Shown here one piece after another: positions 1 to 62,158 of a stretch of DNA of 64,000 bases. Below the pieces are notes generated by a model. It was not told the DNA's origin. It saw only the letters and a list, made by a program, of their open reading frames with translations, and made no database searches. Source of the DNA: Owenia fusiformis (lineage: Eukaryota); contig CAIIXF020000001.1 of the NCBI GenBank assembly GCA_903813345.2, positions 11,470,001-11,534,000 on the forward strand, read 5' to 3'. Every line of letters begins with the position of its first letter. The stretch's first letter is position 1. A program made the position numbers and the translations under genes.

Positions 1-1
1 C

Positions 2-605
2 ATGTATTATACCAGCAGACTAAAAAAGGATGCTGAGGATGTTAAAGAACTCTTTGTCCAAGGATTGAATACATCTACAAAGAACTTTGTAAGGCTCAAA
101 GAACCTGAAAATTTAGAACAAGCTGTTAAGTTCGCAAGGATTCATAGCAACATGCCCCAAGATTCAGCGCCAGAGATGTTAGCAGCCTCGATTAAAATTC
201 TCACGGATAAAGTCGATAAGCTATCCGTTGCTGCAGTCACAGTCGATGCCATGGGTCAACGCTATGCCAACAATAACCAGTTTCCAGTGCAACAAAGTGC
301 CCAAAGACAGCAGAACCAGTATCAACCGCAGAATCAGTACCAACCGCAAAAGCAGTATCAACCGCAGAATCCGTTTCAACAACAGAACCAATTTCCTGGG
401 AATCAACAGTTTACGCAACAACAGAAACGGTATCCCCAACATGACCAACAATTTATGCAGCAAAATTCATCAAGCAGAAACCAGTGTGAGAGGTGCGGTA
501 AGTCAAACCACCTTTCATTAAATTGTTATGCTAGGTTTAAGCAGTGCTTTCAGTGTGGTCGCGGGGGGGCATTATTCATATATGTGTCGAAACGTTGCTA
601 AATGA
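2..605 (+). CDS. gag: Gag C-terminal part (Q-rich linker and zinc knuckles), 5'-truncated by the window
   Basis: CERCGKSNHLSLNC is C-X2-C-X4-H-X4-C. A second knuckle (CFQCGRGGHYSYMC) is restored by removing one G from the G7 run at 563-569, which moves the stop from TAA 599-601 to TGA 603-605. Confidence 0.85.
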
Positions 606-3600
606 GGACTCGCGCCTGTTCCTCATAGGGATGGGCACCTTGAAACTAAAGTTGACAATCAAAAGTTTAAACAAGTGAAAAGTGATAGTGGCAAGGTGGC
701 CATCCCTGCAGTTCAATCAGTCAAGGTTAATTTGCAAAGATCAGTTTCAAACATAATTATTCATACAAACATAGTTGACAATAATATCAAAGCCTTGGTA
801 GATACTGGTGCAGAACAATCCTGTATGAGATTAGCACTCTATGAAAAATTGAACTTGCACAAGAATTGTCCTATCAGTCCAACTAATATTGAGTTATATG
901 GGGCTGGGGGAGAAACTCACAAGCTAGAAGTACTGGGTGTGGCAAATGTTCCTCTAAAATTTGAAGAATTTGAGTACGTTCAACCAATGCATATCCTCAA
1001 AAGTGCAAATCATGATGTAATTTTAGGTGAGGACTTCTTCTCACAAAGTCAAGCACTCATAGACTTCACACAAAAAGTTGTCATTTTACAAAGGGGAGAT
1101 CCTATTAAACATAGTACATATACTACTAATGAACCAAGACTAACAGCATGTGTAAATAATGTAGCTACTGGTAGTGAAGTACAAACATCAGGTATCAATC
1201 TAGAGAAATGTAAATTACCAGAAGGGGAAAAGGCAGAATTGATAACTTTCATTGATAAAAATAAAGATGTCTTTTCTCAAAACATGAATGAGCTAGGCTG
1301 TGCAAATAGTACATATGAGCATGTTATAAGAACAAAATCAGATAAGCCAGTCCAGCAAAGATTCTATAGGTATTCTCAAGAACAGAAAAATGAAATTGAC
1401 AAACAATGTGACCAAATGTTAGAATATGGCATAATTGAACATTCTGTGTCAGAATATGCTAGCCCTGTTGTGTTAGTGAAAAAGAAGTCAAATGAGTACA
1501 GGTTAGCAATAGACTACAGAAGGCTCAATAAAAACACAGAAGCAATTCATTACCCTCTTCCACAATTAAATGACATTATAGATTGCATAGCGCATTCAAA
1601 AGCAACAATATTTTCAGTTTTGGACATGCATAGTGGGTTTTGGCAATTACCTCTTAGTGAAACCTCAAAGCATAAAACAGCATTTGTAACCCACAAGGGC
1701 AAATTTCAGTTCAACAGAATGCCTTTTGGCCTCAAAAATGCACCAATGTCATTTCAGAGGGTCATGAATGATGTTTTGAAAGGTCTTACATGGGACTTTG
1801 TGTTGGTTTACTGTGATGACATAATTGTTTTCAGTAAAGACATGAAAGAGCATTTAAACCATTTAGACCAGGTATTCACAAGACTTAGAAAAGCAAATTT
1901 GAAGCTTAAACCCTCAAAATGTAAACTAGCACTGGAAAAGGTTGTTTATTTGGGTTTTGTCTTCACCAAAGAAGGTATAACAGTAGACAATGAAAAGATC
2001 AAGGCAATTCTATCATACCCACAACCTACAAATGTCACAGAGGTAAGGGCATATTTGGGACTTTGTAACTTTTACCGCAGATTTGTTAAGGGTTTTAGTA
2101 ACATAGTAGCCCCACTAAACAATCTTATGCGAAAAAATGTCGAGTTTGTTTGGGATGAACAATGTGAAAATGCATTTCAAGAATCAAAAATTATGTTGAC
2201 TACAGAACCAGTGTTAGTATATCCTGACTTACAAAAGCCGTTCATTATATCATGTGACGCTTCAGGTACAGCTATTGGTTACATATTAGGTCAAATAGAC
2301 GAACAAGGGAGAGAGAGAGCAGTTAGCTATGGAGGTAGGTCACTCTCAACAGGAGAGAGAAAGTGGTCCATTACTGAGAGAGAATGCCTTGCTTTAATTG
2401 AAGCAATCAATGAATACCACATATACATAGCAAATGCACATTTTATAGTTTACACTGATCACATCTCATTAAAGTACCTGCAATCAATTAAAGATCATAC
2501 AGGTAGGCTAGGTAGGTGGTCAATCAAACTTCAAGCATATGATTTCACCATTGAGTTCAGGTGTGGCAAATCAAACTCAAATGCAGATGCATTAAGCCGG
2601 AGACCATATGAAGTAAATGAATGTAAACAAATGTGTCAACAAACCACAACAATACAAACAGAGGACTCAGGTATTACACAAGACAACTGCACTGATGAAT
2701 GGGTAGCTTATAGTATTCCAAGCCCTACTACAATGCAAACAGGTAATATAGGGTCAGAAGGTCAAAATGTTAAGTGTCCAATAAGTGAATCAAAACAACA
2801 AACAGGTATGTGTAGTGACCTAAGTGCCCTAAGTTCAATATGTGAAATTACTCAATCATCAAATGAGGTGTTTCAAAATAAACAAAGACAAGATCCCCAA
2901 CTGCAAATATACATAAAGTATTTAGAGCAAGATGAGTTACCAGACAAAGAGAACTTAGCAAGAAAGGTAATACTTGAAAGTCAGGATTTTCTTATCAAAG
3001 ATGGTATTCTATATCATATGTATTATCCAAGGGGAAAGGGTCATAAATCAGACAGAGTTGTAATACAATTAGCAATACCACAACAATTGAGAGAGGATGT
3101 TCTACAGTGTTATCATGACTCCTTAATGGGAGGGCATCAAGGTCAAGATAGGACATACAACACAATCAGGTACAAATATTACTGGCCAAAAATGTATTCT
3201 GACATAGAGAAATATGTAAAATCATGTGAAATTTGTCAACAATCAAAAAGGTATCATGGCCAGAGAGCACCCTTACAACCATTACCAACAGGAAGTCTAT
3301 TCAGTCGTGTCCACATGGATATACTAGGACCTATACACAAGGTAAATGGATTTCAGTACATTCTTTTGATTGTAGACTCATTTTCGAAGTGGCCAGAAGC
3401 GGTAGCCTTGAAATCTATAGAGGCAACAGAGGTAGCCAGGGTATTGTTTACAGAATTCATATGTAGATATGGTTCCATGAAGACTTTAATCACAGATAGA
3501 GGCCAGAATTTCATGTCAAAAGTTATTCAAGAATTGTGTAGAATGTTTGGTATTGAACACAGGGCCACCTCAAGTTATCACCCTGAGACCAATTCAAGCT

Positions 3601-4454
3601 GCGAAAGGATGAACAGTACAATCAATCAAGCATTTAGGTGTTTTGTTGATAAACAACAATCTAATTGGCCACAACTTCTACCAGGTATTTTAGCCTCTCA
3701 TAGGTTTTCACCAGCAACTGAGTCAACTGGGTATTCCCCTTACTATTTGCTGTATGGTAAGGAACCCCTTATGCCACTAGATACTATGGTACCAGTAAGT
3801 ATGGGACATAGTACAGTCACAGACAGACTACAAGATATACAGACTAACTTAGAGGTAGCAAGGGATATAGCTAAAGAGAATCAAGAAGCTGCAAAGATAA
3901 AGACTAAAACCCAACATGATAAAAAGGCGAAACTACCACAGTTCAAGGTAGGTGATAGAGTATGGTTACATGTGCCTAAAACTCCAACAGGTCTAACACC
4001 TAAACATTGTAGAAAATATCATGGTCCATATTACATTGTAAGGGCTAATGCTAACATGACATACAAACTAATAAGGTGTAGTGATGATCGTTTATTGAGA
4101 TCTTTGGTACATGCAAATAGATTGAAGCCTTATGTAGATCCAGAGACAAGACCAACAAATATACCAAGAGTTCAACAGGGACAGGTATTACAGGATGACA
4201 ATCATATTGATCAAGGTAGTAGTAGTATTAGTGATAGTAGTAGTGAAAGTGATCAGCAGCCACCTCAGGTACAAGAAGTTGAGCGACTCTTGGCATGTGG
4301 TAAACACAATGGAAAAAAGTGTTATAAGGTGAAGTGGCGTAATGAGAAAAAGAGTACATGGGAGTATGAAGAAAATATTCCAAGAAATTTAATAAGGGAA
4401 TACCATATCACCAAAACAAACACTGGTAAAGTAAGGAAAAGGAAAACTAGATAA
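606..4454 (+). CDS. pol: Pol polyprotein: protease, reverse transcriptase, RNase H, integrase, chromodomain-like tail
   Basis: Motifs LVDTGA (PR), VYCDDII (RT), SCDASG and YTDHISL (RNase H), HDSLMGGH...CEIC plus HMDILGP, ITDRG and GPY (IN). The frame is open from 606, directly after TGA 603-605; the ORF-track start at 675 is only a GTG. Confidence 0.95.
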   Translation, partial: GLAPVPHRDGHLETKVDNQKFKQVKSDSGKVAIPAVQSVKVNLQRSVSNIIIHTNIVDNNIKALVDTGAEQSCMRLALYEKLNLHKNCPISPTNIELYGAGGETHKLEVLGVANVPLKFEEFEYVQPMHILKSANHDVILGEDFFSQSQALIDFTQKVVILQRGDPIKHSTYTTNEPRLTACVNNVATGSEVQTSGINLEKCKLPEGEKAELITFIDKNKDVFSQNMNELGCANSTYEHVIRTKSDKPVQQRFYRYSQEQKNEIDKQCDQMLEYGIIEHSVSEYASPVVLVKKKSNEYRLAIDYRRLNKNTEAIHYPLPQLNDIIDCIAHSKATIFSVLDMHSGFWQLPLSETSKHKTAFVTHKGKFQFNRMPFGLKNAPMSFQRVMNDVLKGLTWDFVLVYCDDIIVFSKDMKEHLNHLDQVFTRLRKANLKLKPSKCKLALEKVVYLGFVFTKEGITVDNEKIKAILSYPQPTNVTEVRAYLGLCNFYRRFVKGFSNIVAPLNNLMRKNVEFVWDEQCENAFQESKIMLTTEPVLVYPDLQKPFIISCDASGTAIGYILGQIDEQGRERAVSYGGRSLSTGERKWSITERECLALIEAINEYHIYIANAHFIVYTDHISLKYLQSIKDHTGRLGRWSIKLQAYDFTIEFRCGKSNSNADALSRRPYEVNECKQMCQQTTTIQTEDSGITQDNCTDEWVAYSIPSPTTMQTGNIGSEGQNVKCPISESKQQTGMCSDLSALSSICEITQSSNEVFQNKQRQDPQLQIYIKYLEQDELPDKENLARKVILESQDFLIKDGILYHMYYPRGKGHKSDRVVIQLAIPQQLREDVLQCYHDSLMGGHQGQDRTYNTIRYKYYWPKMYSDIEKYVKSCEICQQSKRYHGQRAPLQPLPTGSLFSRVHMDILGPIHKVNGFQYILLIVDSFSKWPEAVALKSIEATEVARVLFTEFICRYGSMKTLITDRGQNFMSKVIQELCRMFGIEHRATSSYHPETNSSCERMNSTINQAFRCFVDKQQSNWPQLLPGILASHRFSPATESTGYSPYYLLYGKEPLMPLDTMVPVSMGHSTVTDRLQDIQTNLEVARDIAKENQEAAKIKTKTQHDKKAKLPQFKVGDRVWLHVPKTPTGLTPKHCRKYHGPYYIVRANANMTYKLIRCSDDRLLRSLVHANRLKPYVDPETRPTNIPRVQQGQVLQDDNHIDQGSSSISDSSSESDQQPPQVQEVERLLACGKHNGKKCYKVKWRNEKKSTWEYEENIPRNLIREYHITKTNTGKVRKRKTR

Positions 4455-6483
4455 GAAAGCAAATCGATACATCATGCATGCATTTGAGTCCCATATTAGT
4501 TAGTTGTTTGAGTAAGTACATGTAGGCATTATATGATGTATGATATGGTATTGTAAAGAAACTATAGCAGTTTATTGTTTGATATATTCTATGGTACAAG
4601 TATACAGCACAGGTGAGGTATAAGAGATGATGCTATTAAATTAAGGTAAGGGTATCAGGTGTAAATGTAAAGATAAAAGAGTATTAAGTGAGAAATAATA
4701 AAGTAAATGAAATGTAATAAAGCAAGTGAAATGATAATAAAGCAAGTGAAAAATAAAGAGAATATCTGGTTCCAATCAAGAGGATTAAAACACAGGTCTA
4801 CTTAATGTACAGGTAGATCTGCGGATCCCAGGAAGATCAAACCTTAAAGAAAAGGTTAACCTAGGACAACGTGCGACCTAGTCTGAGTTATCTTATGGCT
4901 AAAACCCCACATTACAAATGCAGTAATAAGACGTTGTTATCTGTGTATGTAATTGTGTAGCCAGTGTCTTAACGTCTAATTAAAGGGGCAGGTAGTGGCT
5001 CACGAATGCGGCAACCCCACCTTGCTGTCATTTATACAGTAAGGTAAGTCCAAGTTCTGACATAAGCACGTAGTACATATAGTGTGTAGAAGTGTTAGTT
5101 AGAATAACATATGTAGTTCAAGTGAAAGTAAAACAAATGTAGTCCAAGTGAAAGTGAAAGAAATGTAGTTCAAGTGAAATCCTAAGGAAAAAGGATAAGA
5201 TATAGTGAGCCAAAATAAAAGTGTCAATATTGCATGGCCAACCCTGCTAATATTTTTAGATGTCTTAACCTGTAAACTAATAAAGTGTTAGGATTATTTA
5301 CTAATATTTAGTATAGTGCCTTCTGGTAAATATAGTTACTGGGTGCAAACTACTTCCTGGGAGCTAGACACTAATTGGGATAATTGGGACCAGTTAATTT
5401 GAGAATGACAACTTATAATAATCTTAATTGTTCAAAATATATAATTAATTAATCCTAAATTGAATATCTATGTACAACTTAAATTGAATTCATGGACTGC
5501 TACAGTCAGTTTACATTGTTTAAGAAGTTCAATTGCAAGGGATTATTTGCCTTACTTCTCTTATACTTCATCAATGTGAGTTTCTCATTATTATTTAAAT
5601 GTGCCAGACAAAGGTCATATACCAAAGCATTATGGTAGAGATAAAGTTTGCACAAACAATTATGATGTGCATCATTAACAGTGTTTATAAACAAAACTTA
5701 GTAGAAAGGTAGGATTTAGTGCAAGTTACTTTTAACTAGATATGGTTATAATAGGCCATAAAAGATTTTTTTTCTCATGTACATATGATTGTAATTTTTA
5801 ACTCAAGAAAATACAGGATTGGATTGTGCCAAGTTGATAAGTTTTTACTGGCAACAGAATCATACGCGTAAAATTCTGTGCTGGTGCATAATGAGTGATC
5901 AATTACCTTTGTTGGTTGTTAATTGCAGTTTGGGTATTTTCAAAAAGAAATTGTCCTGTTTATAATTGTTTTATTGAGTTTAATAATTATTATGGTAGTT
6001 TATGATGATTTTAGTTAGATAAACAGTATGTAAATTGTAAAGTAGAGTATACAAATAGGTGTTTAAAAAAAAATATATATATATGCGACCACTCTGAACA
6101 CTAAATTGCTTAAAATAAGAATTGCTAGCAGACAATTTGAAAGTTGGTAGACTTATGGCCTCAAAAATTATGGAGGAGTTATTAATCTTCTAATATGATG
6201 AATTTCTTGATTAATGAAAATTATGCTGAATTATATTAACTCTGATAGTGCAACAACTACTATTATAAACAATGTGACTTTACTTCAGGAAGGAAGGACA
6301 ATATGACACTCCTCATCTCCAGGCGATGACATCAACATTGGACGATGACATCAACGTTGGACGTTGATATAACATTTTAACATATTTTATACTTTGATAG
6401 AATTTAACATTACAGGTTATATATTTTTAACTTGGACTGATTAAACGGAGTGATTTTCATTTAGAATGCGGGACGCATTCTTT

Positions 6484-6497
6484 GGAGGAGAAGCAAA
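6484..6497 (+). other. Polypurine tract of the Gypsy element
   Basis: GGAGGAGAAGCAAA lies immediately before TGT at 6498 and is preceded by the hairpin AGAATGCG-gga-CGCATTCT. Confidence 0.75.
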
Positions 6498-7136
6498 TGT
6501 GACGGAGTGATTTTCATGTTGTATTTTATAATTAATATCTTATACTTTTACTTTGTTTTTACTTTGTAAATTAATTAATGGAAACATGATACAAAAAGCA
6601 TTTAGATAAACAACAGGTCCTGTAGTACACCTGGGATATCTCTGGTCAGTTTCTCACATTAAATATGCAATCATTACAATTGTTCAGAGCATCTTCAGAC
6701 TTACAAATGTTTCTTTAATTTACATTTAATTTACATTTCTATATCTTGGATTCTAATTAGGATTTGAAGCAGTCTTCCTATTGTTAAACTTTTTACATAA
6801 CAGATTTGAAGTGATCATGTGATGTCTGGTTTTGAAGAATATACTATATGCCATGTGAGATTTGGGTCACTTTTCGGCCTAGACTTCAAAAAGACATAAC
6901 TAGATTTAGCAGTAGATTAGAAGTGAAAACAAGTGAAATAAATAAAAGATAGAAATTAAAACATCACACTATTGTGTAGAATTAATATAAAGAGAGCCCG
7001 GTCATAATATATTCAGTGTGTTTGATTCAAATTATTGGGTCTGTTGCAAATTGATATTTTACTGAATACAGCATAAAATTGAGCTAAACTGAAAAGAATA
7101 AGAACAAACTAGTGGCTCGTATATGTGAGCGTGACA
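6498..7136 (+). repeat. 3' LTR (~640 bp)
   Basis: Starts TGTGACG right after the PPT and ends CGTGACA (inverted termini, 1 mismatch), with AATAAA near 6937. The 5' LTR is not in the window, so the right boundary is unconfirmed. Confidence 0.7.
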
Positions 7137-35070: not shown

Positions 35071-35428
35071 GAAGCTCTTTACAACGTCTATGGTCATTGA
35101 AACAACTTCTGATTTAGACCTTCTTGCTTATTTAGAACGAAGTGGGTGGCTGACCCTCAGTTTTGAGAAAACCTGCGAGCAGTTGACATCTCAATAGACG
35201 ACGCAACTAACAAGAAAAACGAACGTCACGCAATTATAACTGAAAGTTAGCTTCAAAAAAGTCGCTTCCGTATTGGAGCAAATAAATATTTGTTAACACT
35301 AGCGATAAGATCAAGCATTGGTGAAATCATAAGGATTTATTAACGAAATTAGACATTTTTGGCTTCAGCTGAGGACATCACCCTCTACGAGTGAGATGAT
35401 CTGATCCAGATCATTGAATGACTTTAAA

Positions 35429-36916
35429 ATGCGTTTCGACATTGACACTCGATACAGAGAAATGATCGTATTGACACCAAGAGAGCAGAATATTGTGAAT
35501 CAAAATCAGGACTTAAATCTTTCCATAAAATCTGAAGATATGGAGCATTCTGAGGATCTAGCACATTGTGATAATATGAGCGATAACTCCGAAGGATCTG
35601 AACAATACGAGACGGAACCCAAGCCGAGATCGGGTGGGAAAATGAAGGGTCTCAAGCCAAGCGAAATCGAGATGATCCGTAAGGAAATGGAACGAAACAT
35701 TGACGATGAACCCGCAGAAGGTGAGACAACACTTGACGCTGATGGCAAAAAGAAGAAAACCAGTCTCGTAAAACCTCCTTATTCCTATATAGCTTTAATA
35801 ACAATGGGGATTTTGCAATCGCCACAAAAGAAATTGACATTGAGTGGGATTTGTGAGTTTATTATCAACAGATTTCCGTACTACAAAGACAAGTTTCCTG
35901 CCTGGCAAAATAGTATTCGTCACAATCTCTCTCTAAATGACTGTTTCATAAAGATTCCCCGAGAGCCGGGCAACCCTGGCAAAGGTAACTACTGGACTCT
36001 CGACCCAGCTAGCGAAGATATGTTCGACAATGGCAGCTTCTTGAGACGTAGAAAACGATTTAAAAGACAAATGCCCGATTATGCGTTTGCCCAGCAGCAA
36101 GCTTTTATGTCCGCTAATGAACTGTACGGGCACCACCCTGCACTTCTTGCAGCTCACCACCAAGCTGCAGCAGCCGCACATCATCATCATCCAGGACACC
36201 CGACCCACGCTCTGCCATATCCTTACATGGCCCCCATGCACGGACAGGGAGGCCTTTCGCTCATTCCACACCCAGATCTAGCCAGAGCGCATGCAGTTAA
36301 CCCAATGGGGCTTGCAATCTCCCCTCAACACATACAAACATTGCAACGTAGCCTACAGAGAGACATTGCACCTTGTAATAAAACATTATCCAGTGAACAA
36401 CATCTGCCCCAACACTCTGAGCTTGGAAGGGCGCACGTAACTAATCCACTGGGACTAACAATTCCCCAGCACCAATTGCCAAGTGTCCCCAAAGAAGCGA
36501 TTCGCCCCCATAAACCATTGACGGTCAGTACGACAATCGTATCATCCAGAAGCCCAACCTCTAGCAACAGTAGCCAGAAACCAGGCTTTAGTATAGACAA
36601 TATAATCGGGACGTCATCCTCATCGTCATCGCCAAACTCAGACAGGAAGTCCCCAGACTCCCCCGCCGCAGTCACATCGCATTCCTTCAGACCGCCCAGT
36701 TCATCACAGGGACATTTATTATTACAACCCGCCCAACCTGCAATGTCACTACCAGTGTCTCTTGGGATGAGACCTGCTATTTCAATGGACACTCTAAGAT
36801 CTAACGGTAATTCATTCACCAATCCCCTTCATCTGGCCGCTGCTGGCCTTCATGGGATGTCCGGTATAGACTTGGAAAAATATAGACAGTATGTACAGTT
36901 ACCCTGGCATCGCTGA
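35429..36916 (+). CDS. foxD: Forkhead box D transcription factor, single exon, 495 aa from the first in-frame ATG
   Basis: Forkhead domain [12 protein letters not shown]...[58 protein letters not shown] is FoxD-diagnostic; eh1 motif FSIDNIIG at 36587-36610. The ORF-track start at 35414 is TTG; ATG 35462 is an alternative start. Confidence 0.96.
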
Positions 36917-61410: not shown

Positions 61411-61580
61411 CTGAAAAAGAAGATAATATCTAAATAGAGGTTGACTGGAAGAGGCAGGTGAAAATATATCTAATATTGAATATGATTAATAAAATGAAGC
61501 GTGTAATATTAATATTAGCGCATTAATTACTTTATTTATACCATGTCATTTCGAAATTTTACAACTTAGAAAACACTTAC

Positions 61581-62116
61581 TTTACAATGACGTTAACGAG
61601 GATGCGAACCACCTCAGGATCACCACAGAGAACAGCATGGTGTAATGGTGAGTTGCCATCGTTGTCAGGATCGTTTATATCTAAAATGTCCTCCTTTAAT
61701 AGTTTCTTCAAGATCTCAGCTCTGCCTTTCATACATGCATAACTAAGAGCAGATCTATTCATATTGTCTTTTAGATTCAAAAATGCCCCAGCTTTTAGAA
61801 GTACTTTGGCCATCTTCAATCCATATTCAACATTATCGAGAAATGTTGTAAGCATAAAAGCTGTTCTTCCATAGTAATCTTTCGAATCCACATTCGCGCC
61901 ATGTTTGTTCACTAACAAACGAACTTGGTGTAATCGGCCATCCAGAACAGCTTGATGGAGTGCCGTTTTCATCGGACGCTTGGGATGAACAAGTTTATTG
62001 GCAACAGCGATCGTTGTCCTCCCTGGTTCTCCAGTATCATCCATTTTTGGAGGAAATTCTTCTCGTATCGTGTGAAGGTTATTCGAGTTTTCGAGTTTGT
62101 TTTGAAAAACTAACAT
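61581..62116 (-). CDS. Ankyrin-repeat protein (ANKRD63/ANKRD34-like), exon 1; spliced product 446 aa
   Basis: GCCGCCATG start; repeats TALHQAV, GRTAFM, RSALSYAC, GNSPLHHAV; GTAAGT donor at 61580-61575 (phase 2, 170-bp intron). The family assignment is from recalled similarity only. Confidence 0.85.
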
Positions 62117-62158
62117 GGCGGCTTGCTAGGTAGTAAATCCTCTTATAAGCTATTTATA
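62112..62158 (-). promoter_or_regulatory. TATA-like box and Kozak/YY1-like motif of the ankyrin gene
   Basis: TATAAATA at 62158-62151; GCCGCCATGTT at 62122-62112. Confidence 0.45.

Follow-up and report, generated by a model that had tools for sequence, protein, structure and literature searches.

Organization of the element and its gag-pol junction

The DNA analyzed here is a stretch of 64,000 nucleotides of the Owenia fusiformis assembly GCA_903813345.2 (contig CAIIXF020000001.1, positions 11,470,001 to 11,534,000 of the forward strand), which is called the window and is numbered from its first letter. Positions 1-4454 are the internal part of a chromodomain-bearing Ty3/Gypsy long terminal repeat (LTR) retrotransposon, and this report deals with the junction between its gag and pol genes, where a stop codon followed by a hairpin probably serves as a read-through signal. 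The window starts within gag, and the 5' end of the element and its 5' LTR lie outside it. According to Pfam, the pol open reading frame (ORF) shows the Ty3/Gypsy domain order (protease, reverse transcriptase, RNase H and integrase), followed by a C-terminal chromodomain which scores barely over the threshold (27.0 bits, with a cut-off of 25.1). A Pfam scan of gag (2-601) gave no matches, and its frame 2 translation shows a Q/P-rich tail with one complete CCHC zinc knuckle. Gag CCHC knuckles are present 5' of pol, as in other Ty3/Gypsy elements: one is intact and the other is split by a run of G. The Q/P-rich part also contains an 18-nt tandem repeat at 310-390 (4.5 copies, 79% match), which encodes a repeated QYQPQN. 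No second copy of the element was found in the 64 kb, since blastn of positions 1-6500 against the window gave the self-match only. Coordinates of all features are given in Table 1.

In the window copy, the gag frame (frame 2) contains CERCGKSNHLSLNC and continues to CFQCGRGG, where it runs out of register and ends at the TAA of 599-601. The pol frame shows GGHYSYMCRNVAK, the TGA of 603-605 and then an open frame of 1282 amino acids up to 4454. The GGHYSYMCRNVAK stretch upstream of the TGA supplies the missing half of a second CX2CX4HX4C knuckle, and the run of seven G separates both halves. Gag terminates two bases before the TGA from which the pol frame is open; the gag and pol frames never overlap in this copy, and therefore a frameshift cannot join them. 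The arrangement of gag, stop and pol in a single frame is absent from the window copy as assembled, and is found in the majority form of the family and in six relatives, which are described below.

Table 1. Features of the element in the window, and gag-pol junctions of its near relatives (L numbers; positions are those of the respective locus).
Sequence	Feature	Position	Strand	Evidence or composition
Window	gag, partial	2..601	+	frame 2, start cut by window edge; TAA 599-601 after displacement at the G run
Window	first CCHC zinc knuckle, CERCGKSNHLSLNC	485..526	+	gag translation
Window	second CCHC knuckle, split over two frames	545..587	+	CFQCGRGG in gag frame, HYSYMC in pol frame
Window	run of seven G	563..569	+	sequence; one letter shorter in contigs from two other runs
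Window	TGA bounding the pol frame	603..605	+	shares a frame with gag in the family's majority form
Window	8-nt spacer GGACUCGC	606..613	+	between TGA and stem
Window	hairpin	614..636	+	5' arm 614-623, loop 624-626, 3' arm 627-636
Window	pol ORF, 1282 aa	606..4454	+	ORF reading, Pfam
Window	protease	717-1097	+	aspartyl protease Pfam families; DTG at 801-809
Window	reverse transcriptase	1476-1961	+	Pfam RVT_1, 6.2e-38
Window	RNase H	2151-2540	+	Pfam RT_RNaseH, 6.3e-33
Window	integrase zinc domain	3075-3251	+	Pfam Integrase_H2C2, 5.5e-25
Window	integrase core	3306-3584	+	Pfam rve, 2.2e-12
Window	chromodomain, C-terminus of pol	4275-4406	+	PF00385, residues 1224-1267
Window	junction			AAA, UGA, spacer GGACUCGC, 5' arm GCCUGUUCC, 3' arm GGGAUGGGC
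L002	junction stop TAG	2401		AAA, UAG, spacer GGGUACGU, 5' arm GCCUGUUCGCAC, 3' arm GUGAGCGGGC
L004	junction stop TAG	95		AGA, UAG, spacer GGGUGCGC, 5' arm GCCUGUCCC, 3' arm GGGGCGGGC
L005	junction stop TAG	1589		AGA, UAG, spacer GGGUACGC, 5' arm GCCUACUC, 3' arm GGGGGUGGGC
L026	junction stop TAG	5881		AUG, UAG, spacer GAUUUUUC, 5' arm GCCU, 3' arm AGGC; stem interrupted, weaker
L003	junction stop TGA	3428		
L018	junction stop TGA	70		

Majority form of the junction in other copies

Positions 200-1200 of the window are present in 20 sequencing runs from seven studies, under one species label. RNA runs are absent from these 20. Four runs were aligned to positions 1-1500 at 90% likeness: two as Logan contigs belonging to two different studies (X8 and X3), and two as raw RNA reads (X22 and X23), which were chosen by species label and gave 28 and 46 aligned reads, respectively, from around 6% of each run. 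Both contigs show one letter fewer at 563, at the whole of their word depth (2061.9 of 2061.9 in X8, which covers 254-772, and 253.3 of 253.3 in X3, which covers 1-1500), and no alternative letter at 603-605. They also differ from the window by 866 T>A and by 578 A>G, a TCA>TCG change that is synonymous in pol. Contigs lose rare variants, and therefore they give the majority state and not the state of every copy; furthermore, X3 is flagged as a possible source of the window DNA and may not be independent, while X8 comes from another study. Among the RNA reads, the shorter G run was found in one of two in X22 and in two of three in X23.

The majority form of the family is thus gag-TGA-pol in one frame, and the seven-G state is either a private mutation of the window copy or an error of its assembly, a choice that the few RNA reads without the shorter run do not allow to be made. 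The preliminary description, made from the letters alone, had located the seven G, the TGA and the end of the open frame at 4454 correctly. It had also proposed that one G fewer would restore the second knuckle and put gag in frame with pol, and that the extra G is an assembly error or specific to this copy; the knuckle halves that flank the run in two frames, and the contigs that are one letter shorter with an unchanged TGA, agree with both proposals.

In-frame stops in related elements

Of 8000 candidates scored against the pol protein, 2747 are relatives at E <= 0.001, with an identity of 46-48% in the best ones. A CCHC knuckle lies inside the ORF in one of the 120 listed pol relatives, and most of them start 3-160 residues before the protease motif, which points to a separate pol ORF as the rule around this element. 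Residues 1-260 of pol, at its N-terminus, retrieved no protein at E <= 0.001 among 726 candidates. As the only query for loci, the pol protein gave 57 pattern matches in metagenome contigs, all of which failed confirmation, and none in viral contigs; the search with an alignment of 39 of the relatives gave 155 loci, 76 from genome contigs (L001-L076) and 79 from metagenome contigs. The junction of each locus was read from the most N-terminal tblastn match to the window pol back to the next stop, noting the frame of any nearby CCHC motif.

The 76 genome contigs, on which these eukaryotic Ty3/Gypsy pol genes lie, are labelled as bacterial or archaeal genome bins, including Sedimenticola sp., Nitrospirales, Stappiaceae and Methanosphaera, and two isolate assemblies are among them, with a coverage of about 0.3-0.5. 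Several pol relatives found in the protein search are likewise named after bacterial bins (Sedimenticola and Candidatus Thiodiazotropha). A eukaryotic retroelement in prokaryotic bins indicates host or sample DNA in the bins and not prokaryotic genes.

In six loci with around 45% pol identity to the window (L002, L003, L004, L005, L018 and L026), pol shares its frame with the last CCHC of gag, and a single stop separates the two. An automatic survey of the 155 junctions gave rough classes: pol in -1 in 48 loci, fused in 33 (plus three open-ended), pol in +1 in 10, in-frame stop in 14, unclear in 20 and no upstream sequence in 27. The survey put L005 in the -1 class and L004 and L018 in the unclear class, wrongly in each case because their contigs retain little gag; the six near relatives were assigned by hand, and the in-frame-stop class includes distant loci with a stop inside a decayed pol. 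The predominance of frameshifting and fused ORFs among Gypsy elements, as stated in the preliminary description, fits these counts, and in-frame stops have already been printed for elements of fission yeasts.

A phylogenetic tree of the 104 pol ORFs of at least 700 amino acids (the window and 103 loci, 1060 columns) was generated with FastTree; it contains unnamed loci only, with no named reference elements, and 52 too-short loci were left out, L002 among them. The window belongs to a clade of eight rows with support 100, together with L004, L006, L003, L018, L001, L005 and L026. All five clade loci that reach the junction show an in-frame stop (L001 and L006 are without the junction), as does L002, outside the tree. 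The other clades of the tree show pol in the -1 frame or a fused ORF, and the sister group (L077 and L078-L080) is organized differently. Three members of this sister group, the metagenome contigs L078-L080, show 240-540 open codons before the protease without a CCHC knuckle. In addition, a distant group with 27-29% pol identity (L137, L139-L142, L145, L151 and L153) has in-frame stops near the pol start, which may be native or a result of decay, and in L139 a CCHC knuckle is in frame upstream of a TGA.

These data make it very probable that gag, a stop and pol in one frame is the native architecture of the element. It is scarcely credible that a fused gag-pol ORF is native and that TGA 603-605 is a nonsense mutation of the window copy: the 33 loci filed as fused in the rough survey and the private defect that this copy already has nearby would suit such a history, but the contigs of the two studies are unchanged at 603-605 although they differ from the window at 563, 578 and 866, and the stop is at the same place in the five clade members and in L002. 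Moreover, it would be strange for two disabling changes to fall by chance within 40 nt when the adjacent pol is open over 3.8 kb. Very improbable too, if by a hair less, is that seven G are native and that pol is expressed through slippage or polymerase stuttering on this run or through a +1 frameshift. Slippage is conceivable on a homopolymer just 5' of the junction, one of the two X22 reads and one of the three X23 reads are without the shorter run, and pol was filed in +1 in 10 of the 155 loci; however, both DNA-type sequencing runs have the shorter G run in their high-depth contigs, only this form completes the second knuckle, and the relatives have no such run and show gag in frame with pol. 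With seven G, furthermore, the gag stop comes before the pol frame opens, which leaves no overlap for a shift.

A hairpin downstream of the stop

RNAfold predicts a hairpin of 10 base pairs (614-623/627-636) downstream of the TGA, with three G-U pairs, the loop CAU and an energy of -13.7 kcal/mol, which was recovered in every sequence context folded. Its first paired base (614) is 8 nt past the stop, at +12 when counted from the T of the TGA. Within the element the hairpin stands out: of 1472 forty-nt windows only six have an equal or better fold, and the local G+C is 0.57 vs 0.37 element-wide.

The preliminary description had drawn this stem with nine pairs (614-622/628-636, three of them G-U) at the same distance from the stop, to which RNAfold adds a tenth (623-627). 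It had also pointed out an alternative hairpin enclosing the stop (602-608/620-626), of which the complementarity stands but not the rest: it is absent from the minimum-energy fold, reaches -8.2 kcal/mol only if the main stem is deprived of its 3' arm, and is not counted as conserved, as the relatives show a weak and different UAGG/CCUR pairing.

A pseudoknot of the H-type found in murine leukemia virus (MuLV) was looked for by duplex energies, and no conserved pairing between the loop and downstream sequence was found in the window or in the relatives. The best such duplex has -1.9 kcal/mol in the window (loop of 3-5 nt), and in the relatives the values range from -1.8 to -6.6 at unrelated places. 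The loop has 3 nt in the window hairpin and 13-20 nt in the relatives; with only 3 nt, a pseudoknot of the MuLV type is not evident in the window. An Rfam scan of positions 450-850 gave three chance-level snoRNA matches (E 2-4.4) and nothing at 600-640.

Stop, spacer and stem in the relatives

The layout stop, G, seven bases and GCCU is common to the window, L002, L004, L005 and L026, and the stem begins at +12 in all five. A search of the window and the 155 loci for the pattern stop-G-seven bases-GCC[TC] followed by 250 open codons gave five hits, all of them these junctions. Pairing was evaluated on an alignment of four sequences (the window, L002, L004 and L005), in which 95% of the cells of the 10-bp stem are paired, vs 30-56% after a shift of the partner by 1-3 columns. 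Three of the 10 pairs changed on both sides and two more on one side; the fifth pair is G-U, G-C, G-C and A-U across the four sequences. The covariation score is 0.45, vs 0.285 for shuffles, and was reached by 13 of 500 shuffles. Compensatory changes in the stem had been suggested beforehand as a check, and these sequences provide them: four relatives keep the 8-nt spacer, and the stem covaries in the four aligned sequences.

The codons overlying the stem are also constrained. The third codon after the stop, which supplies the first base of the stem, always ends in G (GCG, GTG, GCG, GCG and TCG in the five elements), and these codons make up 7, 23, 16, 6 and 15% of their codon family in the respective pol ORFs. 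The fourth codon is CCT in all five elements, and the Gly codon of the 3' arm is GGG in four of four. Such agreement at synonymous sites, between proteins with around 45% identity, is, on this comparison, not inherited noise. When ranked by stability among the 60-nt windows of its own locus, the stem region is 2 of 1384 in L002, 5 of 1424 in L004 and 37 of 1501 in L005, and it is unexceptional in L026 (214 of 1602).

The 3' arm encodes Gly-His, and [DSNGR]GH is found within 25 residues of the start in 10 of the 120 listed pol relatives, compared with 80 of 5476 background windows; several of these relatives begin M-D/S-G-H-K-G, which hints that the 3' arm is kept in further elements. L003 and L018, which are nested in the window clade, show TGA-C and no stem (0 to -11 kcal/mol, unexceptional), and it appears that the read-through signal was exchanged within one clade.

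A covariance model built from the four aligned sequences (R1) recovered only its training sequences from the window and the 155 loci, the next best match having 17 bits compared with 50-70. R1 found nothing new in three genome bins. It was also run over 151 genomes of one bacterial family, in which contaminating contigs were sought, again with no new instance: the highest-scoring additional match had 24.9 bits (E 0.009). The matches of a 16-letter junction pattern in 27 viral contigs were rejected as chance, with at most 19.5 bits for R1. The context UAG-GGG-UAC at the stops of L002 and L005 also appears in a passage of PMC3159437, in connection with read-through in rice stripe necrosis virus; this agreement may be coincidence.

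Proposed synthesis of Gag-Pol

Taken together, the junction suggests that Gag-Pol is probably made by read-through of the stop, helped by the hairpin. In the native form of the family, with gag and pol in one frame and a single UGA between them, most ribosomes would terminate at the UGA and release Gag, whereas a minority, of a few per cent, would decode it with a near-cognate tRNA and continue to Gag-Pol, which includes the protease, reverse transcriptase and integrase. With the stop in the ribosomal A site, the G+C-rich hairpin at +12 would be located at the mRNA entrance, and would probably help by slowing or disturbing termination. In this way, read-through would fix a low ratio of Gag-Pol to Gag. 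The extra G in 563-569 puts gag out of frame before the stop, and consequently the window copy as assembled cannot make Gag-Pol in this manner. Of the UGA read-through that the preliminary description had assigned to this family, the in-frame-stop architecture is borne out by the contigs and the six relatives, and the decoding of the stop is put forward here as probable.

Several points weigh against this proposal. We infer the Gag-Pol product, the passage of ribosomes beyond the stop, the stimulation by the hairpin and its efficiency from the sequence. The stop is followed by G (UGA-GGA), outside the leaky UGA-C contexts of the papers cited below. The hairpin is short: compared with dinucleotide shuffles of its own 35-41 nt its z is -1.7, and 13-14 of 200 shuffles fold as well. 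The covariation comes from four sequences only, and L004 and L005 share one contaminated genome bin, while L026 fits weakly, is missed by the covariance model and has 214 of 1602 windows that fold as well. The peptide encoded by the stem region is conserved too (G-x-A/V-P-V/T ... G-G-H-K/R), and therefore selection on the protein may account for some of the conservation. The RNA reads without the shorter G run, one of two and one of three, may mean that the seven-G form exists in real molecules. Finally, in Tca2, a retrotransposon of Candida albicans, the UGA with its predicted pseudoknot gave no read-through in a yeast reporter (PMC2194720), and so the architecture alone is not proof of read-through.

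The last of these points bears on an explanation that accepts the in-frame stop as native but has Pol made by another route, such as a promoter in the junction, internal initiation, reinitiation or another bypass of the stop, routes that were likewise left open in the case of Tca2; the stem would then serve in packaging, dimerization or RNA stability, or would reflect a conserved peptide, for example a protease cleavage site. We consider this unlikely. It gains from Tca2, whose junction alone shows no UGA read-through in S. cerevisiae and contains a minor promoter according to the same paper, from the conserved peptide motifs G-x-A-P-V and G-G-H-K together with the Gly-His starts counted above, and from the UGA-G, which is not a classic leaky context. 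On the other hand, the stem lies in all five elements at +12, the position of proven stimulators, rare codons ending in G are fixed at synonymous sites, and the pairs change on both sides. No read joints that would indicate a spliced pol RNA were found in positions 1-1500, where the RNA read depth is only 1-10. Furthermore, the stem-free members of the clade have the known leaky TGA-C instead, and such a swap is expected if read-through is the function under selection.

With read-through of the stop as the preferred reading, the relatives outline a candidate cassette: UAG or UGA as the stop, then G, a spacer of 8 nt with CGY at its end and a stem GCCU...GGGC, whose 3' arm encodes the N-terminal Gly-His of Pol. 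It is possible, although we put it forward tentatively, that a clade of chromodomain Ty3/Gypsy elements has this conserved cassette as its own and has partly swapped it for a structure-free UGA-C. Its hosts would probably be marine invertebrates, since the relatives lie on contaminating contigs in symbiont-type bacterial bins.

If the read-through is true, an animal-type Ty3/Gypsy clade joins the few retroelements in which read-through, and not frameshifting, sets the ratio of Gag to Gag-Pol, with a candidate stimulator that is compact (about 35 nt) and positioned like proven viral signals. The hairpin after a stop followed by G, side by side with a bare UGA-C in one clade, would offer a natural comparison of signal exchange. 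An in-frame stop in such elements should not be annotated as a defect, and a single homopolymer difference, such as the extra G of the window copy, can hide the gag-stop-pol architecture.

Other features of the window

Downstream of the pol stop there are two tandem arrays, at 4686-4756 (19 nt x 3.7) and 5106-5179 (26 nt x 2.8), which may lie within the 3' untranslated part or the LTR. The rest of the window shows two host genes: one at 35405-36916 on the + strand, an open frame of 503 codons with a forkhead domain (PF00250, E 9.7e-37), and another at 61577-62125 on the - strand, an open frame with ankyrin repeats (E 1.8e-22). The G+C of the window is 31-38%, and long ORFs are sparse; together with the two genes, these features suggest a eukaryote of the animal-fungal lineage, probably an invertebrate.

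Comparison with known systems

Read-through is a known recoding strategy of retroelements (MuLV, Tj1 and Tca2) that seems not to have been described before in the clade of the window element; in the open-access literature searched, we found no description of such a cassette or of a read-through signal of stem-loop type in an animal Ty3/Gypsy element. A survey of 2003, as summarized in PMC5009743, lists pol in -1 in 28 of 51 animal elements and in +1 in two.

At the gag-pol junction, read-through is established for gammaretroviruses (PMC13517186, PMC3159437). According to the passages of these papers, the structures of Moloney murine leukemia virus (MoMLV), Venezuelan equine encephalitis virus and Colorado tick fever virus start at +12, their spacers are 8 nt or longer, and a shorter spacer impairs read-through. 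The window element resembles MoMLV in having gag and pol in one frame with a single stop between them, in the G after the stop (UAG-GGA in MoMLV, UGA-GGA in the window and UAG-GGG in relatives), and in the 8-nt spacer with a structure from +12, a register that L002, L004, L005 and L026 share. It differs in three respects: MoMLV has an H-type pseudoknot, whereas a plain hairpin is evident in the window and its relatives; the MoMLV spacer is purine-rich, whereas that of the window, GGACUCGC, has four purines in eight bases and those of the relatives are GGGUACGU, GGGUGCGC, GGGUACGC and GAUUUUUC; and the element is a chromodomain Ty3/Gypsy retrotransposon and not a retrovirus. The proposed cassette might be a layout convergent on the gammaretroviral signal, with a plain hairpin, which we suggest with reserve.

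Among the closest systems are also the Ty3/Gypsy chromoviruses of fission yeasts Tj1, Tcry1 and Tosmo1-3, which have an in-frame TGA between gag and pol and for which programmed read-through is reported (bioRxiv 10.1101/2022.12.06.519325). In the passages of that paper the stop of Tj1 is reported to be essential for transposition, TGA-C is described as leaky, and Tca2 and Skipper are cited as further retrotransposon cases. Their conserved signal is the 8-bp GAA-TGA-CT, and these passages mention no downstream structure, whereas the window shows AAA-TGA-GG followed by a hairpin; among the relatives of the window, only L003 and L018 have the TGA-C of the fission-yeast elements. Tca2 resembles the window element in its in-frame UGA at gag/pol and in a predicted 3' RNA structure, a downstream pseudoknot (PMC2194720), but as a Ty1/copia element it belongs to another superfamily.

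Outside the retroelements, the stem resembles the read-through sites of alphaviruses, Colorado tick fever virus, furoviruses and the Drosophila genes headcase and kelch, for which stems of 10-14 bp, spacers of around 8 nt and compensatory changes are described (PMC3159437). Those sites have loops of about 100-270 nt and mostly UGA-CGG or UGA-CUA at the stop, according to the same passages, whereas the hairpin of the window is compact and follows a stop-GG.

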